Below are positions 6,479 to 64,000 of a stretch of DNA of 64,000 nt, in pieces; within the stretch, counting starts at the first letter, position 1; the number at the start of each line of letters is the position of its first letter. Location of the stretch: positions 73,222,001 through 73,286,000 of the forward strand of contig CM060731.1 in the NCBI GenBank assembly GCA_030704615.1, read 5' to 3'. Source of the stretch: Takakia lepidozioides (Eukaryota; Plantae; Bryophyta). A program made the translations under genes and the position numbers. Below the pieces are notes generated by a model. The model did not search any database and was not told the DNA's origin. It saw only the letters and a list, made by a program, of their open reading frames with translations.

Positions 6479-6505
6479 TAAATTTCACTAAGTCCTTTCA
6501 CTGTT

Positions 6506-33929: not shown

Positions 33930-34900
33930 AAAAAAAGAGGTATAGAAAGAATGGAATGGTCATTGTGAAACTTACTGAGGTTTTTTTATTGAAGAAGAGG
34001 TGAAAAAAAAAGGCTGGGTGAGTCATCATGAATCTTATTTAGGGATTCTTGCATGAACAAGAGGCAAAAAGTTGGATGTCATTGTCAGCTATCTGACGTT
34101 TGGATGCTCATTGTCAAGCTATCTGACGTTTCCAGTATTTCATCCATGGTGGATGGATGATGGATGGATGAAATATTGAAGGAGAGGTTTAAAATAATGA
34201 GGATGGGCAAGAATAGGCCCCAAAATATGACCCCTCATTGTGAAACAGGCAATGGTTTTTGTTAATGTAGATGAGGTGAAAATTAAACAGATGGTCATCT
34301 TCAAGCTTATTTAGGTTTTGTTTGTGAAGAAGATGTGTAACAAAATGAGCGGTTTATTGTGGAACTTGTTCAGGTTTGTGTTATTGAAGATGAGGTGAAA
34401 AAAAAACACATGGTCATTGTGATTGCTTATTTAGGGTGTGTTTGTGAAGAAGAGGTAACAAAAAACATTGAGCTATCCTTGTGAAACTTGTTTAGGATTT
34501 TGTTATTGAAGAAGAGGTGAAAAAAAAATCAGATGGTCATCATGAATGCTTATATAGGGTTTTTTTGTGAAGAAGAGGTGAAAAAAGAAATCAGATGTCA
34601 TCATGAATAAATTAGGGTTTGTTTGTGAAGAAGAGGTGAAAAAAAAACTTGAGCTCTGTCATTGTCAAACTTCTTCAGGTTTCTGTTATTGAAGAAGAGG
34701 TGAAAAAAAAATCATATGGTCATCATGAATGCTATTTAGGGTTTGTTTGTATAGAGGACGTGGAAAACAAATGAGCTGTCATTGTGCAACTTGTTCAGGT
34801 GCTTGTTATTCAAGAAGAAGTGGAAAAAAAAACAAATTGTCATCATGAAGCTCATTTACACAATGCTTCTGTAGAGGCTGTGAAAAAAAAAAATGAGCTT
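33930..34900. repeat. Degenerate ~60-bp tandem array (TTGAAGAAGAGGTGAAAAAAA...GTCATTGTG), subterminal to the CACTA end
   Basis: About 14 visible units. Confidence 0.85.
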
Positions 34901-35104
34901 TCATACTGACACTTGTCCATGTTTGGCAGGCCCTCGAACAATTTATTTTTATTTTTATTTTTTATTTTTTTTGGCCCGGGGCAATATTGGGGGTGGGGGC
35001 AGAAGTGGTGTGCGTTGACACACTCAATTTTAGAGGCTCATTAACCAAATCCGATGAAAAAATAAACTACATTTCGTAACGAGACATCGTCTGCTTGTCC
35101 AGAT

Positions 35105-35751: not shown

Positions 35752-36124
35752 TCAGTTCTCGGGGGGGGGGGGGGTGTTCCCCCAAAACCCGTCGGGTACC
35801 CGGGGTAAAAATCCTGAAATCGTGATCATGAAGAAATTGAGTTCGTTGATGCACTCAGTTGTCCGGGGGGGGGGAGGAGAGGGAACCAACAAATAAATAA
35901 TAAATAAATTTTATTTTATTTTGGTTATCATACAATCTGTCACGATGAGATGTCGCCGGGAGCTGGCAAGCTACTTGAAAGCCTTGGGGATGCGGATTAT
36001 CAAGACGTGGAACTGTGTCAACAGCCTATATCTGACGAAGGGGGATTGCCCAGGGCAGAAGGTGGGTTTCAAATACTTCGTTTTTATGCCTTCTCTGTTG
36101 AAGTTCCACTGTACTGACTAATAT

Positions 36125-37149
36125 TGTTAGAGGACTGTCTGGGACTTAGACACTTATACGGGATCTGTAGGGTACCCTTAATTTTGCACAGACTGAGACC
36201 AACAGGAGCCTTAGGGGTGACAGCAGCGCACTGTAGAGGGGGGTTACACAGCCCGTCCCAGCCAACACAGCCCGTCACAGTCGTCACAGCCAACACAGCC
36301 AACACAGCCCGTCACAGCCGACACAGCCAGACACAGTCAGCCACAGCTCGTCAACAGCCCGACACAGCCATCACAGCCAACATAGCTCGTCACAGCCGAC
36401 ACAGCCACACACAGTCGCACAGCCAGTCACAGCCCCGTCACAGTTTCACACAGCCAGTCACAGCTTGACACAGCTGTCACGACCATAGGGGACGGAGAGC
36501 AGGACAGGGAACGACTATGGGGAACAAACACCTGCAAATGGAACATGTTAGTTCACGGACGACGGTTAGTGAGGGAAACGGTTAGAGCCACGGGTAGGAA
36601 AATCAAGGGAGAAGAGAGAGAAACAAGGACTGAGAGGATGATTATTCGGGGAAGCACTTCACGGGGAAGAATTCTTGGTCATGGAGGAGAGGGGATAGGG
36701 AAGCGAAAAGAGTAAGAACAGAAGAAAAGATGGAGAGGAAAGGTGACGGTGAGAAGATGATTAGTAGATGCTTGTTATATGCAAAGCTGTAGTGATATTG
36801 TAGAGCAGATTAGAGACACAATGGCTTCGGCCTGATACCTGATAAATCATAATCTGATACTTATACGATACAATCACACTGTGTAGAGAGATCTGAGTGA
36901 AGCTGTGGAATGAATGATGAGTTGATGGAATCCGATAGATTGATGAAGCTGATACTTAAATTATCACTAGTAAGGTAGCTAACATGAATGCGGAAAGGAA
37001 AACAAATAGGAAACACCCCCATGATACACTAGTTGTAGGTCATGACTGATTGTTCTGAGCGGGCTGAGTACTTAGAGATTTCCAACTCTTCTATCTTGGA
37101 GTTTCCGCCTCGGATAGCGAAGGGATGGGTGAGTAAAAGCCGCGCGACA
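36125..37149 (+). repeat. 5' LTR of element C (contains a CACAGCC-type simple repeat at about 36245-36480)
   Basis: TGTTAGAGG...GCGCGACA, highly similar to 55942-56948. Confidence 0.95.
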
Positions 37150-37151
37150 TT

Positions 37152-37168
37152 TGGCGACCATACTGGGG
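37152..37168 (+). promoter_or_regulatory. Primer-binding site of element C (tRNA-Arg-like)
   Basis: TGGCGACCA begins 2 nt after the LTR end. The tRNA assignment is from recall. Confidence 0.7.
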
Positions 37169-37755: not shown

Positions 37756-38368
37756 ATGAGTGATGAAAGAGAAGCTAGACGCCAGAGATATTCAGCAAAA
37801 AGAGAAAGCTATCTGAAAGCTAATTATCCATATCTTTGGGAGAGAGGAATAGACATAGGGGAATCATCTGGACCTCTCACACCATTAAGATCAAAGAGTA
37901 CATCACCCATACCGGAAGAACTAGAGTTGGATGCCACTCCTTCTGTTTCTTTGCAAGAAAGATTAAGGGAATTGGTACAGGAAGAAGATCAATCACGAGG
38001 TGAAAGATCTGAGGTACATCCCTGGATAAAAGATTTGACAGAAATCTTTGATAAGAGTTGGCATGGAACACCAAAAGCAGGAACTCCAGTTTCTGAAGCG
38101 GAAGGTGAAGAAAGAGAAGAGGATGTGGCAGAGCCAACGGAGAGTTCAGACTCTCCAACACCATTACAGTTGAGTTACATGAGTGAAGAAGAAACCCAAG
38201 GGCAGAACTTGGAGGATGAAAACAGAGAGAAGAAATTGGAAGAGGAAGAATATGAAGAAGTAGACCCAACAGCTGAGGTTGAGACTACAACCAGGACATC
38301 CCAACCCGTTGGACCTGGATCAAGTGGAGCACTTGGATCACAGGCCAACGAAGGTGTCGGCTCAGGGG
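37756..38368 (+). pseudogene. Element C gag, N-terminal part (cut by insertion of copy B)
   Basis: The ORF ends ..GSQANEGVGSG at the insertion and resumes as GSGGRPGSGSGG at 50590. Confidence 0.75.
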
Positions 38369-39577
38369 TGTCAAGTTAAATAAGCACAGTGTGAAAACAG
38401 CTAGAATAAAAACTAGTTATTTGTATTTAACACTTGGATTTAGGTCAAGTGTTAAATCAGGTGTCAAGTTTAGTTTGACACCTGGTCCGTCTTATCTTCA
38501 CGAGAGCGGCAGTCGCGCGGCTCATCTTTCTCGAGTTGAGCCTGCGCGACCGAGCTCCTGCATGTGTTTAGATTTGAGTGTGCTTATGTAGGGGTACAGG
38601 TTGTTGTGGGGTGGAGTCCCCATAGCTTGGGGTGCCCCTGGCTCGACTACTATTTCTAAGAGTGATGGTTTGGTTTTCATGTTTTGTGTCAACAGTGTGT
38701 TCGTTGGATTTCTATCACTCGAGAAAGATGATCTCTTACCTGTGAGTGCAAGGTAGGAGTTGAGGGTTAGCACTTGCAAGATTACCTGCGTATAAGTAGT
38801 GATTAGTTTGAGAAGCATATCATTGAATGTGACCACAAGATTCAGCGTGCCCTGAAACGCCTGGAGGATGACGATGCCAGAGCCGCCATTGTTATTGCAG
38901 TCGCTGAAGCTACCAAGTCACTAGAGGCTTTGGGGTACACAAGGAGATACTTAAAAATGCAGCAGCAAATGCTAGTTGGCACCACCATGATCCTTGAATG
39001 GATGATCGTTTCACCAGTAAGCTTATAGAGGAGCTCTTCTGGTCTTGTGTGTCATGTCTGAAGGCTTCATTGCATACCACTGATCCTCTTTCAAAGGAAC
39101 AACCGCTTGACTGTCCAGGCTTTGCAGAATCAGAAGCTTGAAGTCACAACGAACGATGATGATGATGTGGAACAGTGGGTGGAAGCTTGTCTTCCAAATT
39201 TTTGGCAGCAGATGACACTGCAGCGCGGAAAAGAATGCTTTGCTCGGAAGAAGGCTCTGATCCAACTAGTTGTGTGTATCTGTGACTTGGCAGAGGACTG
39301 GGCATAAATGACATTTGGTGGGTCTCAAAAGTGGGTCCACATCTGAACGTTGTCACTTGGGGCTGCAAGTTATCGTGATTCAGGGGTGACTCTAACTGAA
39401 TCACCATTGACAAGGACAGTAGTGGCAAGTGCTGTTTAGGGAAGACACCACTGTGGACGACTTGATTCATGTGATAGAAGGCTAAATACAGCAGTGGTGG
39501 ACTAGCCAACAACCGACAAGGCAATCCAGCATGCAGTACCTGGACAGTTTCTTTTTTTTTTTCAAAATGGATTGCAG

Positions 39578-40270
39578 GGATATCAGCAGATGAGAAGGCA
39601 AGACTGCTACACTGTGTTGTTGTAGGTGGTGGTCCTACAGGGGTGGAACTCAGTGGTGAGCTCAGTGACTCATCAGGAGAGACGTCTACGGCTAGTTCGG
39701 CCATGTGAAAGATTTTATCCATGTCACACTTATTGAGGCAAAGGAGATTTTTTTTTTTTTCATCTTTCGATGTTCGACTCCGGGAGTACGCGACCAGGCA
39801 CCTGATCAAGGGTTTGGAGGGATAAGCTGGAGGGTCTTAAACGCATAACTGTTTTCAGACTGGGGTAAAGCTGATGCAGGATGTAGTCAAGGATGTTCTG
39901 CCAGACAAATTAGTGCTTACGGATGGGACGGAGGTGCCATACGGGCTGCTGGTTTGATCAATGGGTGTTGGATCTTCTTCCTTTGTCCACTCCTTACCTG
40001 TGAAGAAGTGCCCTGGTGGAAGCTTGGCAGTTAATCCAGTTACTAATGGAAGCCCTACCGCAAACAAAGAGTGTTGCTGAGAGACAAGGAAAGTACCTGG
40101 GCAAATCTTTGAACAAGCTGGCACAAGCAGGTGGTGGTCAGGCTGGGGTCCTTTTGTAGATATTCTGTGGGCCTTTAATGAGCAAGTGATCCAACCATAC
40201 TCTAAGCTCAGGCGTTGAGCAGCCTTACAAGATATGAGCTGAAGGGATTGACTCAACGTTGCCATCGGTG
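39578..40270 (+). pseudogene. Captured fragment of a type II NAD(P)H dehydrogenase (NDA-type) gene inside copy B
   Basis: [77 protein letters not shown], with stops and frameshifts. Confidence 0.85.
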
Positions 40271-40810
40271 TAACAAACGCGCATTGGCGTACCTGGCATC
40301 CTGAGTGCCCGGAGCACAGGGTGTACTGATCTGAAGCCTTCTCACGTTCTCCTTGACAGAAAGGCCAAGACCCGCATCACCGACCTTCACATCCCACGCA
40401 CTGCCACAGCATAAGAGCACAGAACGAGAGGAGGGGTGAATCCAGACTGTGAGAACTACATGAACATGTTTGGGAACCCGAAGATAACCAGGGAACAGGG
40501 AACCAAGACAAATATTTTTTTTTTTTTTTTAAAGTTTTCTTTGTATTTGTTTGGTCTTTTGATCTAATTTAAATGATTTAGAGCCAAATTGGTCATATCT
40601 TTGTCAAATGGACTCTGTTTGACTCAGTTTTTGGGGGGATAGCTGCAGAAAGGGGAAATCTACCTATCTTGACCTGGTTTTAGTTTTTGGGACTCTGCTA
40701 AAAATCTATGGAATTTTTAGAGTGTGAGTGTGCCATGAAAGATCCACAATTCTGTTTATAGAGCCTGTTCTGGTCTACATGAGAGATAAACCTGGGGATG
40801 TACTCCTTGT

Positions 40811-41558
40811 ATGGCTGGGGGAAATGAGGACGTGATTGAAGGGCAAGTCTCTTCTCTTAGCCTGTGCACCAAAGGGGACAAGATTTATGTTTCCCAAGGA
40901 ACTCAGACTGATTTGAGTGGAGAACAGTTGGACGAGTTGATTGCATACTGGGAGTCAGGCATTAGTAGTGGACAACAAACTGCTGTAGTTGGCGTTGAGG
41001 GCCTCAATATCGCTTTGGACAGTCAGAACTCTGTTGGAGCCAGCAGTTCTGCAGCTGTAGGTGAAACCCAAAGTGGGTGAAAGCTAGGCTTGGAACACAG
41101 CAAAGACAGCCCGGGGACCAAGGTGTTCAGCCACAAGGCCGTGGTATACTGGAGCAGAGGAGCAGGAGCCACACAAGTTTGTGCAATCAGACATGGTTGC
41201 AGCCGGATACGCTCTGCACAAGGCAACCACGAGCGGGGGTTCATCAGCAATGACATGTTTGTTGTGCGTGAAGGAGATGCAGTCATTCGCAATGAGGACA
41301 CCCGCAACCGTCTCAAAGCTTTCGAGTTTAAGAGACTATCAGACCCTACCTTTGTTTTCTTTAGTATTCAGTGAGCGGGAGATAGGGGAGTATTGCTTTG
41401 TCTCTACCTGGCAGAAAGAGGAGGAGGGTTGGTTAGAGCGAGCTACTGTAGCTTGGGACAAGGTTAGTGGCAGGTTTCTGGACATAGATATACCTCCTAC
41501 ACCTTACCATCATGCAGAGCGAGGCACTTTGAGAGAAGTCTGGCAGTTGATAGCATAG
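40811..41558 (+). other. Unknown accessory ORF remnants upstream of gag in copy B
   Basis: Three consecutive or overlapping plus-strand ORFs with protein-like composition; no recognised domain. Confidence 0.3.
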
Positions 41559-42078
41559 ATCAGGATTAGATCTTGCTTGGTTGGGCTTTTATTCTTCCCC
41601 TCCATCTCTGTACTATTTTCATTACCATGTACTTGTAGTTGCCAAAGCCTCTCTTGGTGGAGGCCAGTCAGTCCGGGGTTTTGGGCTGGGCTATTCTGCA
41701 GGATCAGCATTGCAGCTGGATTTTGGTGTGGGGGTGTTGATGTTTTTGATTTCTTGTGTTTGGATCCCCCCCAACACCTGCATGCTTGACTGTGCGCCAT
41801 GTTGGTTTTTGTGTGGGCGCTTGCTTTCATAGGGATTAGGCCGGATTTGATCACCGGTCAATCCTAGAGTATGCTGTCGGTGGTGAGGCTGGAGTGATGA
41901 CCAGCAAGACCACCAGTGTTTCTTCTATGGTGAGGCTGGGTTGATGACCAGCCAACCATAGGAGTTCTTGCGGTGGATGCAGGTGCAGGTGCCCTGAGCC
42001 ATTGGGATATGACCCTTAAACTGCAACAGGTGCCCACCGTGTCACTATTAGATTAGTACTAGAGCCTTATAGTGTCAC

Positions 42079-44640
42079 GTGGAGGAGGTGCACATTGTGA
42101 GTGTCATTACGGAGTTACCCAAGGGTTTTGAGGGGAGTACGGCTACAGGCAGTAACAGTGAGAGTGGGTTCACAAGACGAGGTATTCGGTTCAGACCACC
42201 TTCACCGCCACCCTCAATTACTGTAGAGTCAGACACAGACTCGGAGGCTTCATCAACAAGTGTGCACTTTCATTCGCCATTGGTGGGACGACATGGAGGA
42301 GATGTATGGAGCTACCAAGGGGCCTCGTAGGTACTCTGGAGCTGTGGGCACAATGAGTTGGATGACTTTATCCAGGTTTGACAGCTGGTGTGATTTTGCA
42401 GCAGATGCGCAATCCACAGCTATTCACCCCATTCATGGCGTGGAAGGGACTGTTCCAGCATTTGGAAGGTCCGCCTATGGACGATTACCACGAGTTCAGG
42501 CGAGGACATGAAGTAGAGATTGAGGAGTGGAGGATGTATTGGTCACCTAACTACGTCTCCATTACTCGAGGCACAACGCGACCAGTAGCTACATCAGTAC
42601 CAATAGCTCCCACTGCCAGCACTAGTGGAGCAAGTAGTGCTGGTACTTCTGCAGGTGGTACCAGTTCAAAAGGTGCTACTACTCCTCCTGCCACGACTAC
42701 AACACATGTGCCTAGATTCAACCCGGTGGTGGAGTTCTTCCAGGAGTTGCGGAGGAAACTACCAAGGTGTACGGACAGAGAAGCTGCGAAGTTTGCAAGA
42801 CTTCCAGCGCAAACCCAGTGAGAGCCTGCGAGGGCGTACACTCGTATGAGGCGCTTGATAAGTGTGACCCAAGGGGTTACTGAAGCTCAGGCAATCCAGT
42901 TTGGTATGGAATTCTGGACAAGGAGCTCAAGAGAAGGGTGCGAGATGCAACCCTGTTACAAGCAGCCCAACCCACATTAACAGATGTGTTTCTACTTGCT
43001 GAGCGGATTGAGCTCAACATGGTGGAGGAGCGAGTTGTTACAATTGGATTTGGCAAGGACATGCCTGTACGGGCAGAACTGTCAGCTCACAGGCACAAGG
43101 GACTGCCCAACAGCGTGGTCAGGGGCAAGGTTGCCCAGCCCAAGTTCCATGGAGCTTACAGGGGACCTCAGGTGCTGCAAGGCCCGTGGCATCTTTTGCA
43201 GGCCAACAGCAACCAGGGTGATATGTTGGACATGTGGAGGACCCCATGTCAAGAGAGATTGCCCAGAGAGTGGCAGAAGGCCGGCACAAGCACAGCCTGC
43301 ACAGTTGCAGTGTGGGCATTGTGGCAAGTATGGGCATGGAGATGCCCAGTGTTATGACTTGCATCCTGAGTTGCGCCCAGGCCAGTTCCAAGGGAACAAT
43401 GGTGGCCGGGGCGAGGTGGACCAGCCCAGAGAGGACGAGGTGGTCGGGCACGAGGTGCAGGCCAAGGGCAAGCTCAACATGGCCAAGGACGCGGAGGTCA
43501 GGGTGTTGATCAAGGCATGGCCAACCGGCTTCAGCAGCTAGAGCAGAGGCTCGCTGCCATGGCTATAGCTCAGGCGGTACCGGCTCCCAGGCGGGATGGT
43601 CCACCTCCTGCTCCTGAGGGAGGAGATATGGGAGGCATGGGATTTATGTGCGGAGCAGCACTACCACTAGAGCAGGTGGAGTCTGCTGCAGCCGTGACTC
43701 GAGGAGCAGCACGAGTTCCTGAGCCACGAGGTGCAGAGGTGGAATTGGATCCACAGCGTGGGGAGGCAAGCCGTCAGGCAAGGCTTCCTCAGTCATTCAC
43801 ATTGGCGGAGACTGTGTCGACGCCATCCATGGCACCTAGTTCTCGCCCGACTGTTACCGAGGCGGAGTTACTATGCCATTGGGAGAGCTACACGTGCAGC
43901 ATTGACTCCTGCCAAGGCTAGTGCGGCCGGTGTGTTATTGGGGGCAGCCACCTCTGTGTGTCAGGCCCCACTGTTCTCGGCAACATGATTGCGACGCCGG
44001 GGTGAGACCAGCTGCAGTGTTCAGACTAGCAGCAACACTCTGTGAGAGTGGGGAGGTCACTTCATCTTCTGCGGAGTTAGTGGAAGGTGTAGTGGCAGAG
44101 GGATCCTCGGATTTGAGGGTCAAGACTGCCACGGCTGCGCCATGGCAAGCTGCAGCTGCCAGGTTGACGGAGCTGCCAGCTAGGCCAGCCTTTGAGCGCG
44201 CCATGGTGACACCTGGAGTTGTCTTGTTAGACAACCAGGGAGGCATTTTCACTTTGAGTGGACCGGCAGGCAAGAAGTACCGGCCACTGCGGGTCTTGTT
44301 GGACTCAGGAGCTCAGCCACTGATGTTGGGCAGAGCTGCTATTGCAGGTTTGGGCCTCATGGAGGCGGATATGGAGCCTTGTCCTTTCCAGATACAGACA
44401 TCTCTGGGAGGATCAGAGCAGGCTCGGGCATGACACGGCATCAGTTGGCTATTAGACTGCAGCCGGATCATCCTGTAGATGGCTCAGTGATGCGAGCCAA
44501 GGCCATTGTGACAGACGCGGTCTCTTACGATGTCCTCGTTGGTGGGGCAGTGTTATACCCCATGGGCTTCACCCTGGATTTTGGGAGGAGTCAGCATCCT
44601 ACAGGCCTGGATGGCAGTGGGATGGTCGCCGTGCACAGCT
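42079..44640 (+). CDS. Gag and aspartic protease of copy B (frameshifted in this sequence)
   Basis: FQRKPSESLR, CWTCGGPHVKRDC, CGHCGKYGHGDAQC, VLLDSGAQ. Confidence 0.85.
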
Positions 44641-45004
44641 CCCTGTGACATTCATTGGGGTATTGCAGCTGCCCAGCGGGGCAAGATGCCAAACACTAGC
44701 CGCCTTCACAGCTGCAGTTAGTTGGCCTGGAGAGTTGCTGGAAGGCAATGCCCATGCAGAGGATGTGCCACCTCCAGCAGAGCAGGATGACATGCATGGT
44801 ACGGCGGAGTTGCCTGCCATGGTTGCTCACACTCCATTGTGGGGTACGAGCAAGGATTTGCAGCAAGCTGCTGATGGACGGGTGCAACAAGCTGGGTAGA
44901 AGCTTTTGTACCGTCAGGAGAGGAGGAGAGTGCGGTGATTGCACCACCACCTCAGTTGTCGCCATTGGACACCACACCTCTTGTGTGGCAGCGGCCGGAT
45001 GAAG

Positions 45005-45960
45005 GCATTTGCCTTCTGGACTTGTTTGGCGGGATCAGCACCGGATTGGCTGCTTGCTACAGGCAGGTGTGCCGTTACCTGTATGTGGAGAGGGATGAGA
45101 CTGCACGACGCGTCTCACTGCGCCATGTGCTCAGTTGGTACAGCAGTACCCTGACTTGTTGCCTGTGTCTGCAGTTCGTGGATACCAACAAGCCTTGCCA
45201 GCAGACATTTCCTTGTTGGGGGCGCAAGATTGGAGCAGGTTGGCTCCATTGATCTGATAGTGGCAGGTTGGCCCTGCCAAGGGCATTCATCAGCCGGCAT
45301 GGCAATGGATTGCGAGACTCGAGGACGGGTCTGTTTTGGGAGATGGTGCGGATTTTGCGCTGCTTGCAGCTTCATCAAGCTGTATCTCCAGCATACATCT
45401 TGAGAATGTACCACTGATGGGTGATTCTCGGGCCAGGGTGATGGCCAGTGTGCATCAAGTCCGGTCGTGGCTTGGGTCAGCAGTGTTGCTGGATGCAGCT
45501 GCAGTGGGGTCACGGGCTCATCGTCCACGACTATGGTGGACTAACTTGATGCCACCCGCACTGCTCAAGCGTGCATTTGATGGGGTGCAGCGGCCAGCAC
45601 ACCTCACCGTGGATGGCATTTTGGACACAGGAAGGCAGTCTCAACGTGTGAGACACGATGACCGTTCGCCTTTGGCAGTGGTCAACAGGGTGGGTCAACC
45701 ACGAGCAGCATTACCTACACTGCTCAGCTTCCCAGGATCCCATGCTTTTCGGGATGGTGGACCTGGCCTCCTGTGGGATGCTCAGTTGCAGCAGTTAGTG
45801 GAGCCTAATGCCGACGAGCGAGAGCGGGCTATGGGGTTTTCCACTGGGACCACGGCGGTGCCTTCTCTTTCTGAGGCATCACGTCGTCAGGTGTTGGGGC
45901 AAGCAATGGATCTCAATTGCTTGACCTGGATTGTCAGCTTGGCTATGGCTGAGCAACGTA
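45005..45960 (+). CDS. C5 cytosine DNA methyltransferase domain, DNMT3-like, within the copy B polyprotein
   Basis: LLDLFGGISTG, YVERD, IDLIVAGWPCQG (catalytic Cys codon 45275-45277), GLFWEMVR, ENV, AHRPRLWWTNL, ERERAMGF..GTT, RRQVLGQAM. Confidence 0.92.
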
Positions 45961-46399
45961 GAGTGCGGAGTGCACTTCCCTTGACGGTCTCTCTGCCTAC
46001 CGAGACGGTACAGGCAGCGAGTGGGGGCGAGCCGGTGAGGACCACGAGGTGTAGACATCCATGGCACATGTGGGAGGTGCTCGAGGTTCAGAGGGAGTTG
46101 GCAGCGAAGGCAGCTGTGATGGATGAGGTTGGGGATTCTTCTCGGGATGAGGAGGTTCTCAATGATGAGATGATGGGGCAGGATGAGGCCTTGTCATTGA
46201 CTGAGCAGGAAGGGGGTACTGCTCAAGAGGTTGCAGCATAGCAACCACGGGACGCGTCCTCTACCTCTAAGCCCACTGGACTTAAGGTTGCAGTTACGGA
46301 GGACAATTGGGAGCCTGACATTGGACCCATTGTCACGGAGGAGAGAGACGACGTATACGGCGGTTCCTGAGGGCTTACAGGAATTGCTTTGCCTTCAGT

Positions 46400-47720
46400 T
46401 TGAAGGACTTGGGAGCACTGAAGGGTCAAGAGATCCGTATTGAGTTGGCCACTGACACGCCAATCTTTCGGAGACCCTATAGATACAGTGACATGGAGAG
46501 GTCTTTGATTCAGATGAGGACTCAAGATCTCTGGGAGGCAGGTTTGGTGGAGCTCTCTGGTGGAGAGTATGCTTCAGCCACAGTGATGCCAGCTAAGAAG
46601 GATGTCTATGGCAATTGGACGGAGAGACGTATGTGCGGTGATTACCGGCCTGTAAATCGTCAGACCAAGTCCGATAGGTATGCCATGCCAACACCAGAGG
46701 AGATCTTTGATGCCATTGGGCATTCCAAGGTCTTTAGCACGTTGGATTTACGATCCGGATATCACCAGTTGCCGATCAAGGAGGCGGATAAGCAAAAGAC
46801 GGCATTCTGGGGGATCAATGAGCACGGGAAGGATTGCCTATACCAGTGGCGGTTCTTACCATTTGGGCTTAAAAACGCTCCCGCTGAGTTTCAAAGAGTC
46901 ATGGACAGGATTCTAGCAGGGGTGGAGTTTGCTCGGTGCTACATAGATGACATCATCATCTTTAGTGCTACGGTGGAGGAGCATGAGAGACACCTTCAGG
47001 GGGTATTTGAGCGCTTTGAGGACGCACGGATTGAAGTTACATCCGGGCAAGTGCAAGTTTTTCCACAACCAGATTGAGTATCTGGGTCACATGATATATC
47101 CTGGAGGATTGGGGGTACAGCAGACTAAGGTAGAGTCCATTGCACAGGTTCCACGCCCCACGGATGTGAGCCGAGTCGAGCTTTCATGGGGTTAGCAAAC
47201 TATTACAGACGGTTTGTTAAGGATTTAGTGCCATTGCAAAGGCTCTAACCAAGCTGACCAAGGTGGACCAGGAGTGGCAGTGGGAAGATGAGCAAGAACA
47301 AGCTTTTCAAGAGCTCAAGGCGAGGTTGACCTCGGCGCCCATCTTGAGACGACCTATCAGGGGCGTCCTTTTCAGCTGCATACAGATTGGAGCATGCTGG
47401 GGCTTGGAGCGGTGCTCACACAGGTGGATGATGAGGGAAGAGAGTTCGTAGTGGCTTATGCTAGCCGCTCGAACAATGCTGCAGTCTAAGTATAGCTCAT
47501 ATGAGGGAGAATGCTTAGCTGCAGTGTGGGCCGTGGCACACTTCAGGTGCTATCTATACGGCAATCTCTTCACCCTTGTCACGGATCACCAACCACTCAA
47601 GTGGTTGATGGAGTCAGACAAGCTTACGGGGAAGCTTGCACGGTGGGCACTCATCCTTCAAGAGTATGACTTTCAGGTGGTGCATCGACCGGGTTTGGTC
47701 AATCGCAATGCAGATGGGTT
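46400..47720 (+). CDS. Reverse transcriptase and RNase H of copy B
   Basis: RMCGDYR, LDLRSGYHQL, LPFGLKNAPAEFQ, YIDDII; RNase H YSSYEGECLAAVWA, TDHQPLKWL, NADGLSR. Confidence 0.95.
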
Positions 47721-47959
47721 GAGTCGCAATCCATGCACGAGCCAGCAGGATGACACTGGAGCTCGGTGGCATGGTGAGACGGACGAGGAGATGGTGCCCG
47801 GATGGCATGCATCTGCATTTCTGTGTATCTTGGCAGCGGAAGGCCAGGTTGGACCTACAACAGGGATGACTGTAGATCAAGTGTCTGAGGACCCTGAGGC
47901 CAGCAATGAGCAGGTGGCGCCAAAGATATACATGAGGATTCAGTTGTGTTGGACTACCT

Positions 47960-49368
47960 CCGCACTGGAGACACGGCAGCCACTATGACTGCCAAGGAGA
48001 GGGATCGGATCCTACAACGAGCCAAGAGGTTCAGTGGGAGGGGACACACCTGCTCCGAGTGTGGGAGGATGGTCGAGTGAGGATTGTGCCTCACCCAACA
48101 CAGCGGGCACGGTTAGTGCGGCATGCCCATGAGGAGTTGGGGCATTTTGGGGTGCGACGCACTCATAGTCTACTGCAGGGCAGTATTGGTGGCGTGGTAT
48201 GCACACAGAGGTGCAACAATTTGTGGCTAGGTGCATGGTGTGTGACAGGGTGCGTGCTTCATTCAACGCCCCTACTCCACAATTGCACCCTCTTCCGATC
48301 ATGGGATTGGGCTACAGGTGGAGTCTTGACTTCGCAGGGCCGTTGCCACTGACCATGCGCCACAACAAGTACGTGTTGGTGATGGTGGAGCACTTCTCCA
48401 AGTGGATTGAATTGGTTCCATTGCCTGATAAGGCTAGTGAGGGAGCTGCGTATGCATTCTTGGATTGTGTGCTTAGCCGATTCGGTGCTCCAGCTGAGGT
48501 ACTCACGGACCAAGGAGAGAGTTCTTGGGGGAGTTTCAGGCTTTGTGTGACAAGGCCTTGATAGACCACCGCACCACTTCTCGGGATCATCCTGAGGCCG
48601 ATGGCTTGGCAGAGAGAGTTGTTCAGACAGTAAAGAGGGGTTTGCGCAAGTATGGCTTGCAGAAGGGACACCTAGGAGATTGGGACCTTCAGTTACCCTG
48701 GTTAGCCATGGGCTACAGGTTCAGCAAGCAAGCATCACTTGCCTCCTTCTCACCATACTTTCTTCTCTTTGGCCGAGAGCCGGATTTGCCTACATCCATT
48801 CGCAGAGAAGCTGCTACAGTTCTTAACCTTGACGATCCGGACGTGTGGGCACGTGCATGTGAGCAGCGTGCAGAGTTGTTCAAGAGAGTCATGCCCATGG
48901 CTTTCGAGAACCTTGCCATTGCACAACACCGTGATACGTTGAGGTATGCTACCATACGTGGTGGGGGCTATCGTCCTGGGGTTCGGAGATTCAACCCTGG
49001 TGACTATGTCTATCTGCAGCAGACTGCTCCTACGACCCTGGATGTGACTGCAGGACGTGTTATTTTGAGGGTTCGAGAGGTCTTGCCCTCAGGCGTCTTG
49101 GTCTTGGAGGGTCGGGATGGCATAACTTGGAAGGACCATGTGCGTAATTGTGCGCCATGTCACCTTCCGAATGTCGATGGCAGGATTGACCCAAAACCTG
49201 GCAGTGGTATCTGCAGGTTTGAGGTGCATGTGTGTGGGTCTGCTAAAGGGGCAGCCACCATGCTGGTGTGTGATCGATGCTCTAGAGGTTGGCATATGGG
49301 GATGCTTGACTCCACCTCTTGAGATGGTTCCAGATGGGGATTGGTTATGTCCACATTGCATTGGATAG
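47960..49368 (+). CDS. DDE integrase with C-terminal PHD finger (copy B)
   Basis: HEELGH..CMVC, WSLDFAG, LTDQG, DGLAER, RFNPGDYVYL, then MLVCDRCSRGWHMG/CLTPPLEMVPDGDWLCPHC. Confidence 0.92.
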
Positions 49369-49393
49369 TGGGAGTGGATACAACCATGGAAGG

Positions 49394-50497
49394 CTAACAA
49401 GAAACGCAAGGCCCCAGCTACTAGGAGACCTTGAACACACGAGGTCCTGGCTCAAGTTCACAGATTGCAAGACGGCGACTAACGATGGGGCTACTCTTGT
49501 ACCCGGCCTCTTGGTCTATAGAGTTTGAGTACAATAGGGACAGTGATAGAGGACTTAGTACGGCTGTGGCTATTACATCTTGTAGCTATCTGGAGGTAGA
49601 GGGACCTATCCACCAGCTAGGGGGGCGATTGTGCAGACTACTTTATTGTGCATATATGTGTGGTGTGGTTTGGACAGCGATGTGTTATGTATGCGCACGA
49701 CAGCTGTCAAGTTAAATAAGCACAGTGTGAAAACAGCTAGAATAAAACTAGTTATTTGTATTTAACACTTGGATTTAGGTCAAGTGTTAAATCAGGTGTC
49801 AAGTTTAGTTTGACACCTGGTCCGTCTTATCTTCACGAGAGCGGCAGTCGCGCGGCTCATCTTTCTCGAGTTGAGCCTGCACGACCGAGCTCCTGCATCG
49901 TTTAGATTTGAGTGTGCTTATGTAGGGGTAAGGTTGTCGAGCCAGGGGCACCCCAAGCTATGGGGACTTCCACCCAAACAACCTGTACCCCTACATTCAA
50001 ATCAAAAATGCAGATCGGATTCGCAGGAACTGAGAATAAGATGGCCGCGCGACTGCCGCTTGTGAAGATAAGACGGAAGGTGCAACTAAATATGCTGATT
50101 TAACACTTGACCTAAATCCAAGTGGTTAAATACAAATAACTTTATTCTGCTGTTTTCAACTGTGCTTATAATTGCAGCTGTCGTGCGCATACATATCGCT
50201 ACACAACTACATCGCTGTCAAACCACACCATACATATTTGCACAATAAAGTAGTCTTGCCACAATCGCCCCCCTAGCTGGTGGATAGGTCCCTCTACTCC
50301 AGATAGCTACAAGATGTAATAGCCACAGCCGTACTAAGTCCTCTATCACTGTCCCTATTGTACTCAAACTCTATAGACCAAGAGGCCGGGTACAAGAGTA
50401 GCCCCATCGTTAGTCGCCATCTTGCAATCTGTGAACTTGAGCCAGGACCTCGTGTGTTCAAGGTCTCCTAGTAGCTGGGCCTTGCGTTGCTTGTTAG
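49394..50497. repeat. ~540-bp inverted repeat near the 3' end of copy B (arms ~49394-49937 and ~49977-50497)
   Basis: The second arm is the reverse complement of the 3'UTR, PPT, segment B, GC and segment A. Confidence 0.85.
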
Positions 50498-50586
50498 TTA
50501 TTGTGGCAGACTACTTTATTGTGCATATATGTATGGTGTGGTTTGGACAGCGATGTAGTTGTGTAGCGATATGTATGCGCACGACA

Positions 50587-53500
50587 GGGGGATCAGGCGG
50601 GCGGCCTGGATCTGGCTCTGGGGGGACAGGGAGTGTGGGAAGTAGTAGTGCAACTGAAGCTGGGAATACTGTGAATATCGTGGGGCCAGAAGCAGGGAGT
50701 GCTCAAGGGTCACCACTTGGTGGAAGATCCACCACAAAAACAACAGGTCCAGAAGGACCAGCACCAGCAAGGGTGCCAGCACCTGTCAGTGGGCAGAAGG
50801 TAGGGCCACAGATGGCGTTACAACCAACACGGGAAAAACCACATTTTCCAATATATTCAGGAAAAGGGGATCCCGATGTACACATTAGCCAATTTGAGCA
50901 CATGTGTATAGTGAACAATGAGAATGGCGATGATGCCAAGATGAGATTGTTTCCTTGTTCACTTATCAAGAAAGCAAGTGAATGGTATGCAAGATTCCTG
51001 ATAATCATTTCCTAACCTGGAATGGCTTGAATACAACATTTCGAAATAGGTTCAGGACAAATAAAACTGAGGATGAAGTGTATGGAAGTTTACAACAGTT
51101 GAAGCAAAAGAAGCATGAAACTATTGAGGAGTATATGGAAAAGATGGAATTGATGATGAAAAAACTGGCTGCAGTACCAGCACCCGGTTTACAGAAGACT
51201 TGGTTTGTGAGTGGACTAAGACCAGAGTTGCAAAAGAAAGTGGATATGTTACCCCATAATACAGTGGAGGAGGCATTTGAAACTGCGAACAGAATTGAGC
51301 AATTGGGAATGCTCAGGAGAGAGAAAAGGATGATGAGGACTCTGAGGATGAGTCAGATGAAGAAGAAGAGCAAGAACTAAAAAGAAAGAGTAAGAGAAAG
51401 GAGAAGTTGAAGAGGGATAACTATGAAAAAAGATTGGAAGAAATCTTGAAGAAGTATGCCACAGAGGCTGCAACACATTGGAGGAAGGGTGTATGGTGTG
51501 CAAAGTGCCAGAATGAAGGCCATACCACCACAGAATGCCACATGAAGGAGAAACACTGTACTATCTGTAAAATGGATAACCATTCTACTGAGAATTGTTA
51601 CTACAACAGAAGGACAGCTGCAAGAGAACCTAGGCAAGTAAGGGTGCATCAGGTGCAGCCCCAGCCAAGAAGAAACAATGATCAGGACCACTATGGTAGG
51701 TCTGGTGGTTATAACAATGGCATGGAAGGGAGAGGTAATTCAAGAGGGAATTACCAAGGAAATTCCAGAGGCAACTATCAGGGTAATCCAAGGGGGAATT
51801 ACCAGCCCGGGAATCAGGATTATAGAAATAATCCAAGAACAGACCAAGGGCGAGGACCCAATGGTGAAGAACTATGTTACTATTGTAATCAGCCAAGACA
51901 TCGCAAGGCAGCCTGTTCATTCTGGATAAGACACCAGAATGAGATGAGAGCTCCTGTGAATGAGGGCCCAGTGGTGGCAGCTCACATGGTTAGGCCATGT
52001 GTTGTACAGAAGTAAGTACAATGATAGTAACAAGAAGTAAAGCCAAACTAATACCTCCAGTAGTAGAGGAAGAAGATGATAATGAAGGTGGCAATGATAT
52101 GCCTGAAGATGAAGAGACTTGGAAAGATAAGAAGGAACTGCACAAGGAAGTGGCAGATACTATAGGGAAATGCAGAAGAGTACTGATATTCCTGTGGCAG
52201 ATTCCTCTGATTCTGATGGAGAAGAAGAAGGGAGTGAGGATGAAAGAAGAAAAGAAGATGCAGATATGCAAAGTAATGAAGAGACTTTGGCTGAAGTAAT
52301 ATGCCAGACCAAAGCAGAAATTACTATTGGACAGCTATTAGCTGTGGCACCTTATTGTAGGCACAGGCTGCTGTATCAAGCAATCAATCGAATTGCCCAA
52401 GAGACAGGAAACACAGACCTGAACAGCAAGGTGACCAGTTATAATGTGAAGCCGGAAGGGCGAGAAACAGTCATAGACTTTGATGATTCTATGCCAGTAA
52501 TCCAATTGAGAATTGGAAGCACAGAACTAACTGATGTACTGATAGATGGAGGTTCTGGAGTCAATATCATGACAGACCAATTAAGGAAGAAGCTTGGTCT
52601 AAGTAACATGAAACCAGCCCTATTTACAGTAACAATGGCAGATCAAAGAAGTGTACAGCCATTGGGATTGATAAGAGGAGTTAAGATATAGATACAAAAG
52701 ATGATCTTTATGATCACAGTAACTGTGTTAAAGATGGATGAAGTCATGGAGGCTTACTCCTTATTATTGGGACGTCCGTGGCTGAAACAGGCCAGGGTAT
52801 TCCATGACTAGAATTCTCAGTTACTAACCGTGCATAATGGGATACACGAGATACAAATTACCACAAAGAAATCTAGTAGATTACCTGCTACAAGAAGACC
52901 TCGAGGAGTCAGAGAGTATGACTGGAAAGGAGGACTGGATGAGGAGCAAGAAACTACTCTATTTGCTGCACACCCAGAGTGGGAGCAGGTTGCAGAGATG
53001 CGGCTGGAAAGCCTAAGTTGTTTTAAGAGGTATCTGCTGTGGTGTAGTGACAGCAACACCTACTGAAAAGGAAACCAGCAGTTACCCATCACATTTCTAT
53101 GAAGAAAGAGAAGGAGAAATGGAAATCCTAGAGGAACCAGCCATGGTGAGCTTACAGGATGAAGTGGTGAGTGGTTGGACAATCACAGCTGATGAGCAAG
53201 TGAGGGAAGTGAATGTGGGAACTAAAGAGGAACCGAGGATGGTGAAAGTAGGAGCTGATTTGGAGCGGAATTTTTGAAGAAGCTAAAAGCTTGTTCATCA
53301 AATACAGAGATGTTTGCTTGGAGCTATGAGGATCTAAAAGGGATACCACCTGAAGTCTGTCAGCATAAGATTGAACTGGAACCAGGGTCAGTACCAATCA
53401 AGCAGGCGAGGTACAGAATGAATCCCAACTACGCACAGAAGGTTGGAGAAGAGATTAAGAAGTTGGCTAAGGCTAAGTTTATATACCCAATAGAGTATAC

Positions 53501-54055: not shown

Positions 54056-55941
54056 AAAGCCTCTCTACAAAGAAATAAACAGTCAAGCGGAAAAATGTAC
54101 AAAGGCAGAGGCAGAGAATGTTGAGCAAATGAACCTCATTGTCGATATGAAGAATACAATCTGTCGCAATGAAGATACTTTCAAGCAATACAAGCAGATT
54201 GAAGCTGATCAAGAGAAGTACATCCTGGAGTTGCAACAAACGCTCCTGGCCAATAGAAATGAAATCTCGGTCACTAACAAGGCTTGGAAGGAAGCTAATA
54301 ATCTACTTGCTGCCTACGCGAATTTGGTTGAACCTCATGCGAAGCGCATGGAGACTTTACAACAGCAGTTAGAAGTGTACAAACTCAGAGAGGAGCATAC
54401 TCTCAGAGGAACCACAAGCAACTTGGTGGATAACAGCCTTATGCAGGTCTGGTTAGCACAAGGGCCAGTGGAGGGCAAAGCACCACGAAAGCTCACCCAA
54501 AGCGAGATGAATGAGCTCAGACTGCAAGTGCAGAACATTGCCACAACTATAGACAATGTCTATAGTAGGATAGCAGAGTTACAGGAGGATGTAGACGGAC
54601 TGCAGACTCAAGTGGAGGACCTCACTTCAAATATCGACAAAAGAGTCTATATCCCTCAGGAACAGCTAATGGCTTCTTATTTACAAGCCAGAACTTTGGC
54701 TTTTCAGTCTTCACAGGAGGTGCAGGAGATGCCAATGATACAAGAGCCAGTACCAACCAACACCACAACAAGTCACTGTACCAGTAGCTGAACCTGTTGT
54801 TACTACAACCACACCACAGCCACCACAGCCTGAGGTATGGGGCAATGCTGCTTTTAAACCCACCTAAAACTCCAGCTGCAAGGGAGTACAGTAGGGCTAT
54901 GATTATGCCCTTCAACCAAATTCCCATCATGTTGGATTTAGCTTGGAAAGAATTTAGTCCTCCGCAGTCATTCGCACATTACTACCAAATCATGCGTATT
55001 TGGCTGCCAGTGGCAACTAGGACTAAAGTTCTTCCGAACAATCGACATATTGAGGATCATCACTTTGCACAATACTGGCATGAGGCAAGTACAATGTTGA
55101 AGGAATTATTTGCCTTCCAAGTTGTACATGGATTCATTTATACCAAGACCAAGGAGGTAGTAGTAAGTATTGTCATGGGATGCGGGTTATACTACGCTGC
55201 TTGTTTTCTGGTACGTTATCACATTGAGCAGCACAAGATGCAATCGCGCTTTCTGAGTTATTCCAGTGGGGATCATTGGATCTTACCTTCAGTGCCACCT
55301 CATATGTACCTATATGAGGCAAAAGTTATGATGCAAAAGGATTCTCAAATTCGTTCATGGTTTCAAGCGGCCTGGAACAATTTGTCAACACAGAAATTCG
55401 GCATTGATGATATTTTCTATAAGGGACATGTGGCATGGAAATACTTGCGCGGTGCACAAGCAATTGGTACCCCACTCACCTGGACAGACAAGGAGCTCAG
55501 TGTCTACACCAATTTTGCTGTTCAGCGGTTACAGCAAGTTGTAAAATATAAACTTCCAGACATGGTAGGACAACATTGTATGCCCCAGAGGATTCCACAA
55601 AAAGTTCGACAATTAAAACACCTGAGAGGCGATGAGGATTCTGATACAACTGTTTCTTCAGCGGATTCTTTTGACATGCGAGAAGACTATGCAATTCAGA
55701 TGGCAGAGAAGAAGCGACGGGGGTCTCCTATGCCTGAAAGGTTACCTCGATATCAGCCTCCAGAGGGCCTCACTTATCCGGGTAGTGTTCAAACATCTCC
55801 GTCAACCAGTGACAGACCTCGGGCTCGTACACACAGTCCACCACGAAACTCTCAACGTCAGAAAGGTGCTTACTCACAAGGGTTTGCTAATCGCAATCAG
55901 AAAACCGTGAGGACACGGCTTTTTGAGAGGGGAAGGGGTAA
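54056..55941 (+). CDS. Extra 3' ORF of element C (coiled-coil region plus an unknown 389-aa region)
   Basis: ORFs 54006-54791 and 54797-55966 lie between the truncated RT and the PPT GAGAGGGGAAGGGG. Confidence 0.55.
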
Positions 55942-56948
55942 TGTTAGAGGACTGTCTGGGACTTAGACACTTATACGGGATCTGTAGGGTACCCTTAATT
56001 TTTGCACAGACTGAGACCAACAGGAGCCTTAGGGGTGACAGCAGCGCACTGTAGAGAGGGGTTACACAGCCCGTCACAGTCATCACAGCCAACACAGCCC
56101 GTCACAGTCGTCACAGCCGACACAGCCAGACACAGTCAGCACAGCTCGTCACAGCACGACACAGCCATCACAGCCAACACAGTCCGTCACAGCCGACACA
56201 GCCACACAGCCAGTCACAGCCCGACACAGCCACACACAGTCGCACAGCCAGTCACAGCCCGTCACAGTTTCACACAGCCAGTCACAGCTGTCACGACCAT
56301 AGGGAACGGAGAGCAGGACAGGGAACGACTATGGGGAACAACACCTGCAAATGGAACATGTTAGTTCACGGACGACGGTTAGTGAGGGAAACGGTTAGAG
56401 CCACGGGTAGGAAAATAAAAAGGAGAAACAAGGACTGAGAGGATGATTATTCGGGGAAGCACTTCACGGGGAACACTTCTTGGTCATGGAGGGGAGGGGA
56501 TCGGGCGAAGAGTACGAAAAGAAGCAAAGATGGAGAGCACGGTGAAGGAGGAGAGATGATTAGTAGATGCTTGTTATATGCAAAGCTGTAGTGATATTGT
56601 AGAGCAGATTAGAGACACAATGGCTTCGGCCTGATACCTGATAAATCATAATCTGATACTTATACGATACAATCACACTGTGTAGAGAGATCTGAGTGAA
56701 GCTGTGGAATGAATGATGAGTTGATGGAATCCGATAGATTGATGAAGCTGATACTTAAATTATCACTAGTAAGGTAGCTAACATGAATGCGGAAAGGAAA
56801 ACAAATAGGAAAAACCCCCATGATACACTAGTTGTAGGTCATGACTGATTGTTCTGAGCGGGCTGAGTACTTAGAGATTTCCAACTCTTCTATCTTGGAG
56901 TTTCCGCCTCGGATAGCGAAGGGATGGGTGAGTAAAAGCCGCGCGACA
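55942..56948 (+). repeat. 3' LTR of element C
   Basis: TGTTAGAGG...GCGCGACA, preceded by the PPT at 55925-55938. Confidence 0.95.
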
Positions 56949-59649: not shown

Positions 59650-60140
59650 CTGGGCAATAACGGCACCGAAATTATCCCAGATGCAGAGACGCAAGCGGAA
59701 TTAGGATCCGGGTTTGCAGACTCCGAAAACGCAATGGCGACCTATAACCGTGGATAGTACTGTTGCAGAAGTGCATGATGGTTGGGTATAACGGCGCCGT
59801 AATTGGGCACAGGAAAAGAAATAGCCGGCTGAAGGCTCGGGAGTGAAGCCAACAACGGTGAAAGTAATTGGGCTCCGCCAACCAAATACCCGGCTGCATC
59901 CTCCGGAGTGCAGGCGATAACGGCGCCGAAATGGGCCCCGAAAATCAAATACTCGGTTGAAGCCACCGGAGTGCAGCCGATAACGGGGCCGAAATTGGGT
60001 CCGGAAACCAAATACCCGGCTGAAGGCTAGGGATTGCAACCAATAACGGCGCCGAAATTGACCTGCGGAAACAAAATTCTCGGCTGAAGCTTCCGCACTC
60101 CATCCAATAACGGCGCCAAAATTGGGCTCCGGAGAGCAAA
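59650..60140. repeat. ~60-bp degenerate tandem repeat with core ATAACGGCGCCGAAATT
   Basis: About 7 visible units. Confidence 0.8.
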
Positions 60141-60244
60141 TACCCGCCTTACGGTAAGGGAGGCCTTGCTCTCATTTTGCTCTTCACTCTTCTCTGTTGT
60201 GCCCATCTCCTCCCTGCTTTGAGTTCGTGCTATGTCGTGAGGCC

Positions 60245-63905: not shown

Positions 63906-64000
63906 GATAAACCATCTTGTACTGGTGGCTGGAACTGGCACGCGTCGTGTTCCAGTCGACTTCATCCGTGCGAACGTGTCAGGGGTCACAATCTCTTCAT

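Follow-up and report, generated by a model that had tools for sequence, protein, structure and literature searches.

A DNMT3-type methyltransferase encoded ahead of a conserved in-frame stop in an abundant Ty3/gypsy retrotransposon of the moss Takakia lepidozioides, with apparently permuted terminal repeats

The window analyzed here, 64,000 nucleotides of the moss Takakia lepidozioides (contig CM060731.1, positions 73,222,001 to 73,286,000), holds two copies of a Ty3/gypsy retrotransposon that encodes a predicted C5 cytosine methyltransferase (C5-MTase; DNMT in domain orders). Copy A spans 38369–50586 on the + strand and is flanked by a 4-bp target duplication (GGGG at 38365–38368 and 50587–50590, + strand); in public contigs that represent the empty site, with loose ends, 38368 is joined to what lies beyond 50590. 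An earlier reading of the letters alone (the original prediction) had placed the element at 42079–49368; its true limits are wider. Three-frame translation of the + strand gave the order gag, protease (PR), DNMT, in-frame stop, reverse transcriptase (RT), RNase H (RH), integrase (IN), and PHD finger. The gag, with its zinc-knuckle region and a spacer (42293–44190), is frameshifted in the assembly and was recognized by tblastn to the Marchantia protein P0008; identity in the gag core is 69–75%. The aspartic protease (44200–44600, LDSG at 44299) gave weak Asp_protease_2 matches in copy B and in L081, a related contig. The DNMT domain (45007–45960) is followed by RT and RH (46330–47740, YIDD at 46940; Pfam RVT_1 and RT_RNaseH), a DDE integrase with H2C2, core, and C-terminal parts (48050–49170; Pfam Integrase_H2C2 and rve), and a C-terminal PHD finger with the stop codon (49205–49368; PHD E 8.5e-11 in copy B), all on the + strand. 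The gypsy-like label given to the element earlier is borne out by the PR-RT-RH-IN order, the Ty3-type RT (RT-RH of L081 is closest to Ty3 Pol), and the DDE integrase, along with TG...CA ends, a polypurine tract (PPT), the 4-bp target duplication, and a primer-binding site (PBS) of the self-priming type. Two full direct long terminal repeats (LTRs) are not present at both ends, which instead read A-ORFs-B-A-B or A-ORFs-B; no Chromo match was obtained after the integrase in the second open reading frame (ORF2) of L081 or in the window, where a PHD finger is found instead; and the element possesses a DDE integrase rather than the tyrosine recombinase that typifies DIRS/Ngaro elements.

Translation confirmed the C5-MTase motifs on the + strand between protease and RT, where they had been predicted: in the usual numbering, motif I lies at 45022, II at 45085, IV at 45266, VI at 45402, VIII at 45519, IX at 45822, and X at 45894, all between the PR LDSG (44299) and the RT YIDD (46940), and the arrangement is mirrored on the - strand in copy B. 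The domain had been called complete and present in both copies. All motifs are indeed there in copy A, but the stretch that carries them is broken by four or more frame changes, and the counterpart in copy B (∼2740–1768) has a stop directly after the catalytic Cys and an altered motif VIII arginine. A stop-free piece of copy B passed the PF00145 check that had been proposed (22.6 bits; gathering cut-off, 22), and Pfam gave no match with the frameshift-split DNMT pieces of copy A. When searched against the PDB, the family profile retrieved DNMT3A (E 5e-20) ahead of DRM (8e-9 to 5e-7) and bacterial enzymes (1e-5), and a relative from Calypogeia matched DNMT3A/B best, then DRM, then bacterial enzymes. 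The predicted fold of the homologue L003 (pLDDT 79) aligned over its whole length with DNMT3A/B in Foldseek (E 6e-17, TM 0.64–0.67). Motifs I to X are in unpermuted order, and the circular permutation of DRM enzymes is absent; the target-recognition region is longer than that of human DNMT3A. By sequence and predicted fold, the domain is a DNMT3-type C5 methyltransferase; of the earlier choice of DNMT3/DRM over MET1/CMT, the DNMT3 part stands and the DRM part does not. An identity as MET1, CMT, or rearranged DRM was rejected on motif order, sequence, and fold. A host gene fused to the element by assembly error was likewise rejected, as the layout is identical in two copies, in other loci, and in named genomes.

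The residues expected at the active site are well conserved. The catalytic Cys is kept in 226 of the 229 aligned relatives with a residue at that position, the motif VI Glu in 233/238, and the two motif VIII arginines in 227/236 and 229/235 aligned proteins; copy A retains all of the 12 sites that were checked. Among decayed genomic loci (locus counts here and below refer to the best 80 of 146 relatives from a metagenome scan), the same arginines were found in just 32/75 and 42/74, a loss to be expected of codons with a CG once a copy has inserted. Substitution rates for divergent locus pairs (pS 0.5–0.74) gave a median dN/dS of 0.17 for both DNMT (150 pairs) and RT-RH (132); integrase (89) stood at 0.12 and protease (126) at 0.25. 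Close pairs gave 0.5–0.7, reflecting decay. These values indicate that the domain is under purifying selection at a level equal to that of RT-RH, in agreement with the test put forward originally.

In copy A, ORF1 (gag-PR-DNMT) is separated from RT-RH-IN-PHD by an in-frame TAG followed by CAA CCA (46239–46247, + strand), which we predict to be a readthrough signal. The original prediction put the enzyme inside one polyprotein with RT and integrase; the reading frame is the same, but the enzyme closes the first frame with Gag and PR, ahead of the TAG at 46239. Of the 80 loci, 51 could be scored (6 were too short and 23 lacked an RT anchor), and 50 of these have a stop in the RT frame at the homologous place, with CAA coming next in 44 of the 50; the background frequency of CAR after stops in any frame is 3.0% (1,116/37,144). 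The context is TAG CAA CCA in copy A, TAA CAA TTA in L079, and TAG CAA CCC ATG in the main Sphagnum-like family, and the frameshift-free L081 has ORF1 with protease and DNMT, then TAG CAA TCA, then 1,046 codons of RT-RH-IN-PHD. The reading frame is maintained across the stop despite linkers of differing length. Many deposited relatives end ∼95 residues past motif X; DNMT and RT are continuous, without a stop, in proteins P0066 and P0145 and in the Klebsormidium model. CAR YYA after UAG is the readthrough signal of tobacco mosaic virus (TMV), and viral contexts of this kind allow 9–32% readthrough in plants, according to the part of PMC2754532 consulted. We consider it highly probable that RT-RH-IN-PHD would be made by readthrough of the conserved stop. 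With a TMV-like stop conserved between DNMT and RT, the enzyme would likely be made together with Gag and at the level of Gag.

The ends of copy A are built from two repeats, A and B, both with TG...CA termini. Repeat A1 (38369–38717, 349 bp, + strand) contains a predicted self-primer at 38522–38535 that is perfectly complementary to the predicted 14-nt PBS located immediately downstream of the repeat (38718–38731, +). On the 3′ side, the PPT with a 2-nt spacer (49618–49629, +) precedes repeat B1 (49630–49702, +), which meets A2 at a junction, CACGACA-GC-TGTCA (49696–49709), with a 10-bp palindrome that we predict to be the integrase cut site. The first 233 bp of A2 (49705–49937, +) are 98% identical to A1, and B2 (50502–50586, +) again ends in CACGACA. 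Between them, at 49933–50499 (- strand), lies an inverted duplicate of the 3′ region, either a real rearrangement or an assembly artefact. A miniature inverted-repeat transposable element at 49705–50169 was considered and rejected because the sequence is repeat A plus its inverted duplicate.

Other loci show the same architecture. Long copies read A-ORFs-B-GC-A-GT-B; this long 3′ end was seen in six independent insertions, with the contig of L003 stopping inside it, and in seven B1 is the last repeat. The 4-bp duplication was found in 6/6 copies with both ends (five insertions), including the short L014 and L041 as well as copy A. The sequence immediately behind A1 is complementary to a site 154–183 nt into A over 14 nt in copy A, 13 nt in copy B, 12 nt in L081, and 9 nt in the Sphagnum-like family, in which the pair is retained at that site in 3 of 13 5′ copies, the others being decayed or matching elsewhere. 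The primer pair differs in each of the four lineages yet stays complementary, i.e., the two sites covary; in controls, a complement of at least 9 nt arose in 0 and 1 per 1000. A self-priming layout is known for Tf1/Sushi elements and predicted for moss Tcn1 (PMC6317226, in the part consulted). The PPT precedes B1, not A, and the PBS follows A1, so reverse transcription should yield LTRs of the form B-GC-A, and we propose that this unit is the true LTR. The junction CACGACA-GC-TGTCA is identical in copies A and B, L011, and L081, though the repeats otherwise differ. The 2 nt that follow the PPT recur as the A2-B2 spacer, L058 has extra PPT-like bases at this position, and the window has its inverted duplicate; these features fit a newly made end-to-end joint. 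Filler of this type occurs at the junctions of two-LTR circles, and retroviral integrases can cut palindromic LTR junctions. On balance, the inserted copies are probably circular permutations opened at the palindrome inside the LTR, a layout best fitted by integration of LTR circles.

Relatives of the enzyme occur in other bryophytes and in algae. A 187-residue piece of copy A covering motifs VI–X gave 74 protein matches with up to 79% identity, 27 of them with named hosts (Marchantia, 21; Sphagnum, 3; Calypogeia, 2; Riccia, 1); no vascular plant was found among these 27. The profile reached the Klebsormidium nitens protein GAQ92009 (PR-DNMT-RT-RH-IN; E 1e-73), Closterium (3 of 10 proteins looked up), and Scenedesmus (1 of 10). 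A total of 451 clusters at 50% identity scored E ≤1e-30 against the profile. The DNMT of 249 proteins is positioned after protease or before RT in 65, between RNase H and integrase in 101, in a DIRS-like Pol in one, and alone in 82. The two Ty3 orders separate in both the DNMT tree (a branch of 96 rows at 0.97, among 224 rows) and the RT tree (0.95), the latter computed with every second RH-DNMT row omitted. Klebsormidium was absent from the 224-row tree owing to low coverage; a 52-row DNMT tree that included it placed it with the bryophyte elements (0.90). The RT tree, which has no outgroup, puts Klebsormidium between the PR-DNMT and RH-DNMT groups. Sphagnum-like elements pair with those of Marchantia to the exclusion of this moss (DNMT 0.99, RT 0.996), unlike the host gene tree, which means either old sublineages or transfer. 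We identify copy A with high confidence as a DNMT3-carrying Ty3 element akin to KnitGypsy-Dnmt3 of K. nitens. Its family is most likely the land-plant branch of that lineage, as judged by homology and repeat layout, so that we regard it as a range extension rather than the new capture that the original prediction implied.

Several side observations concern these relatives. A large sister group of Ty3 elements (P0126–P0136, P0163, P0203 from Scenedesmus, and ∼90 others) carries the same DNMT3-like domain behind RNase H and ahead of integrase, with a PHD further on; a chlorophyte is one of its named hosts, and this order was not found in the literature consulted for comparison. In protein P0139, whose Pol is DIRS-like, this DNMT lies after RT and before RNase H, and precomputed annotation gives a PF05869 (Dam-type) domain behind them. 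Scans of IMG/VR with the queries A2 and P0163 found nothing. A GTDB scan yielded one contig, L081, in a cyanobacterial bin; its positions 1–9285 consist of such an element throughout, in a circular assembly that has a single B-GC-A junction, and L081 is likely eukaryotic carry-over in the bin, not a bacterial gene.

Comparison with described systems was made against the consulted parts of each source. According to de Mendoza et al. (2018; PMC5890265), KnitGypsy-Dnmt3 was acquired within the lineage of K. nitens; DIRS-like repeats are given in a figure legend, and the species table of that study includes Physcomitrella and Selaginella, with Marchantia and Sphagnum absent. The moss element shares with it a Gypsy backbone, a homologous unpermuted Dnmt3-like domain in the same position (PR-DNMT-RT-RH-IN in GAQ92009), purifying selection, and DIRS-like split repeats (on the Klebsormidium side, per that legend). 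It differs in its land-plant host, its far greater copy number, and the location of the enzyme at the end of ORF1 before a conserved stop, whereas PMC5890265 places DNMT in the same ORF as RT. The PHD finger, self-priming site, target duplications, short forms, and integration as circles are not mentioned for KnitGypsy-Dnmt3 in the part of that text consulted. SymbioDIRS-Dnmt3 and SymbioLINE-Dnmt are likewise retroelements with a C5 methyltransferase, with A-coding-B-A-B repeats in the DIRS form; unlike SymbioDIRS-Dnmt3, which has a tyrosine recombinase, the moss element has a DDE integrase, Ty3-type RT, and 4-bp duplications. The EpiLTRs (bioRxiv 10.64898/2026.05.21.726589) also combine a Ty3/gypsy element with a DNMT and a chromatin reader, but theirs are a DNMT4-related enzyme plus DAM and a chromodomain, in Cymbomonas and Euglena, and the preprint itself sets them apart from streptophyte Gypsy-DNMT3. 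The chromoviruses Tcn1 (found in mosses and clubmosses) and Tf1/Sushi are self-priming Ty3/gypsy elements (PMC6317226), unlike which the moss element has a PHD finger in place of the chromodomain, an added DNMT, and a permuted LTR instead of two full ones. Host PpDNMT3 (Yaari et al. 2019) and DRM share the DNMT3-family catalytic core, but the element enzyme is intronless, sits inside a retroelement, and is not permuted like DRM. Schmid et al. (2018) list five DNA methyltransferases for Marchantia, element-borne ones not included, and such enzymes are not mentioned in the parts consulted of Schmid 2018, Yaari 2019, Hisanaga 2023, PMC11982613, or Neumann 2019 (PMC6317226). Sarre et al. (2025) and the EpiLTR preprint speak of "streptophytes" without naming land plants in the text consulted, and their supplementary trees may hold bryophyte sequences. 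The absence of an earlier embryophyte description, as first supposed, held in the literature searched, where no land-plant account of the DNMT-carrying family, its readthrough, or its permuted LTR was found, most subscription journals lying outside the coverage.

Taken as a whole, we give an even chance to the following interpretation: a high-copy moss Ty3 element of the KnitGypsy-Dnmt3 lineage whose enzyme methylates the element's own new cDNA before insertion, probably as a circle. Ribosomes would mostly halt at the UAG, making Gag-PR-DNMT the bulk product and RT-RH-IN-PHD the product of leaky readthrough, so that particles would be rich in enzyme. The RNA would prime its own reverse transcription in the manner established for Tf1, giving a normal cDNA bounded by B-GC-A LTRs, which would close into two-LTR or one-LTR circles. 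The DDE integrase would then open the CA-GC-TG palindrome, yielding the long A-ORFs-B-GC-A-B copies from two-LTR circles and the short A-ORFs-B copies from one-LTR circles. Freed by the protease, the enzyme may methylate the double-stranded cDNA or circle de novo, and the copy would arrive marked like host heterochromatin; that cDNA is its substrate is a proposition we hold at equal odds. The PHD finger may steer the integrase to H3 tails unmethylated at K4, away from H3K4-methylated promoters. Its nearest PDB relatives are the fingers of CHD4, KDM5A/B (PHD1), ATXR5, DPF3, PHF21A, UHRF1, and AIRE, presumably all readers of the unmodified H3 tail, and we judge this targeting role to be moderately probable. 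LTR circles are normally dead ends. A broader scenario is, in our estimate, rather less probable than its negation: a Ty3 group spread across green plants, with DNMT3 plus PHD in two domain orders and hundreds of families, would have survived into mosses and liverworts with its integrase attachment site moved to a palindrome inside the LTR, circles as integration substrate, and particles loaded with a de novo methyltransferase by readthrough; the choice of which of the two junctions is cut may depend on whether the CG next to the palindrome is methylated.

Several observations weigh against the interpretation of self-methylated circles, and some of them favor other explanations. Of the 14 5′ ends in the loci (13 independent insertions) and the two in the window, none has B in front of the 5′ A; a two-LTR circle has two equal junctions and a single permutation is observed, so the circle model needs an extra rule. 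The ends could have been made without end-joined circles, either copied from the internal B-A junction or derived from linear cDNA cut there, and the short forms could stem from later recombination between B1 and B2, which lie just ∼340 bp apart. Copying of split repeats from an internal junction has been proposed for DIRS/Ngaro elements. Such a route accounts for the single permutation, and the layout equals the A-coding-B-A-B of DIRS elements (PMC5890265, as far as consulted). It is at odds with the PBS right behind A1, as standard copying then cannot template B2 from RNA, with the resemblance of the A2-B2 spacer and filler to a new end-to-end joint, and with the 4-bp duplications and DDE integrase in place of a tyrosine recombinase; we regard it as possible but less than probable. 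For the stop, the commonest context (TAG CAA CCC ATG) is one base off CARYYA and provides an ATG, so in the main Sphagnum-like family RT-RH-IN could be reached by reinitiation at that codon instead of by readthrough; this ATG is missing from copy A, L079, and L081, all three of which fit CARYYA at every base. The stop could also be removed by splicing, as happens in Ogre elements, and public Marchantia and Sphagnum gene models (P0004, P0005, P0014, P0051) bridge it with an intron. These models disagree on splice points and may be prediction artefacts, and splicing does not need the frame to be conserved on both sides. We consider either route unlikely and continue to favor readthrough.

Other points bear on what the enzyme does and how the family spread. 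The observed/expected ratio of CG is 0.43–0.53 in the element and 0.27–0.34 in the neighboring Ty3 element and host genes, i.e., higher and not lower, and the CG depletion that marks extra self-methylation in SymbioLINE-like elements was not found in the element. In yeast, SymbioDIRS-Dnmt3 domains methylated CG de novo, and no methylation was obtained with that of K. nitens, a result its authors call inconclusive; human DNMT3B failed in this assay as well (PMC5890265, part consulted). The K. nitens failure, the EHV in place of ENV in the K. nitens gene model, the lack of CG depletion, and the Glu that replaces the motif IV Pro before the catalytic Cys in 76/228 aligned relatives (e.g., the RH-DNMT-IN protein P0129 and similar ones) could all mean that the domain no longer methylates DNA and instead binds nucleic acid or methylates RNA, with a structural part in the particle or in circle formation. 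The failure of human DNMT3B in the same assay, the retention of the active-site Cys, Glu, and both arginines in 96–99% of aligned proteins, and the kept SAM-binding motif speak against this reading, which we regard as unlikely. The enzyme might instead act outside the particle, methylating chromosomal DNA where the element inserts, in its sister copies, or at host loci, and thereby damping the element or reshaping the host methylome; host effects and self-restraint are discussed in the consulted part of PMC5890265. An abundant upstream product would supply far more enzyme than one cDNA needs, and the copy load of the host is very high. Polyprotein domains of LTR elements normally act within the particle, however, and the enzyme has no attached targeting domain, the PHD finger being on the integrase; we think this improbable, if less so than a loss of activity. 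Descent from a streptophyte ancestor is our preferred account of the distribution, and a partial spread by horizontal transfer seems to us somewhat unlikely. The conflict of the Sphagnum-like and Marchantia grouping with the host gene tree would suit transfer, as would the identity of copy A to Marchantia (71% in DNMT and 78% in RT-RH versus 52% for RRN3). Old coexisting sublineages explain the grouping equally well, synonymous sites among the window and loci are near saturation (pS 0.73–0.83), and the presence in Klebsormidium and Closterium fits descent. The Closterium group lies outside the Klebsormidium-bryophyte clade in the 52-row DNMT tree, and the trees (FastTree, midpoint-rooted, with no host DNMT3 or DRM and no outgroup) are weak at deep nodes. 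The 80 loci come mostly from one Sphagnum-like family and are partly identical insertions, so their counts are not independent, and the activity, transcript, protein, and circles are all proposals drawn from sequence.

The analysis places a transposon-encoded DNMT3-type, predicted de novo, methyltransferase in land plants, including Marchantia, for which genetics and methylomes are available; the 21 Marchantia matches come from deposited gene models, most of which bear the name hypothetical protein. The question raised in 2018 of how the enzyme serves the element thereby becomes directly testable in Marchantia. Likely new here are the apparent readthrough stop and the permuted LTR, in a land-plant member of a known, little-studied kind; both the stop and the layout of the ends were absent from the original prediction. 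If circles are indeed the substrate, their use by a DDE integrase touches a long-standing issue in retrovirology and explains why an abundant family would escape LTR finders that require two complete LTRs plus a duplication.

Copy B occupies 1–8629 on the - strand and has its own A1 (8629–8209) with its own self-priming pair, gag from ∼5475, PR, the broken DNMT (∼2740–1768), IN, PHD (510–361), the PPT, and a B1-GC-A2 junction cut by the window edge. It is 90% alike to copy A over 41634–45968 and 96% over 47961–49633; a deletion joins the equivalents of 45968 and 47961 (window 1768/1767) and removes exactly RT-RNase H, with gag, protease, DNMT, integrase, and PHD kept. The terminal repeats of the two copies differ in sequence although their interiors are 90–96% alike. 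Premature stops number 0 in 1,759 mapped codons of copy A and 7 in 1,372 of copy B. A contig of another sample matched copy A over 2,173 nt with 4 substitutions and 8 gaps, and nearby single-copy DNA matched run X3 over 3,007 nt with zero differences; the frame breaks of copy A therefore seem to be read errors left unpolished within repetitive sequence. Contigs matching 41000–51000 numbered ∼93,500 of 2.79 million in run X1 and 92,600 of 3.04 million in run X3, and the summed contig depth in run X3, which is not a copy number, was 0.4–1.3 million over the element and 55–140 over RRN3. The family is very abundant in this moss, with the contig figures giving no copy number.

The 5′ leader of copy A includes a lower-copy stretch (38760–40700, edges approximate), seen as a drop in contig depth, that contains a fragment resembling a host NAD(P)H dehydrogenase gene (39568–39669; Pyr_redox_2 E 5e-4, under the curated cut-off) and T-runs; it may represent a transcript that was captured and is now carried by one subfamily. 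A 20-nt leader motif (41844–41863, +) is common to copy B and the distant element L081 (L081:8505), whose repeats cannot be aligned with those of the window, and is possibly a packaging or splicing signal. Public contigs join interior positions 43286–45319 to the reversed 3′ end at 50177–50179, which suggests that copies have inserted into one another. Copy A is itself nested in an unrelated ordinary Ty3 element (36122–56951, +) with LTRs at 36122–37152 and 55939–56951 that are 92% alike, and the empty site of that insertion is present in public contigs. Host genes in the window include a frame similar to steroid 5-alpha-reductase (11653–12129) and RRN3 (21180–25326). The closest named match of RRN3 is Sphagnum, and it forms its own deep branch in a 13-row moss clade with both Sphagnum rows (100/100), which upholds the land-plant host originally proposed. 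Beside RRN3 lies an intronless PPR frame (26663–29911, - strand) of 1,082 codons with 101-residue repeats; very many similar contigs in the host runs indicate a large PPR family. Tandem arrays occur at 33930–34930 (∼60 bp), 59790–60160 (∼64 bp), 62270–63930 (∼64 bp), and 6500–6900 (∼92 bp), and the array at 62–63 kb has a palindromic core.

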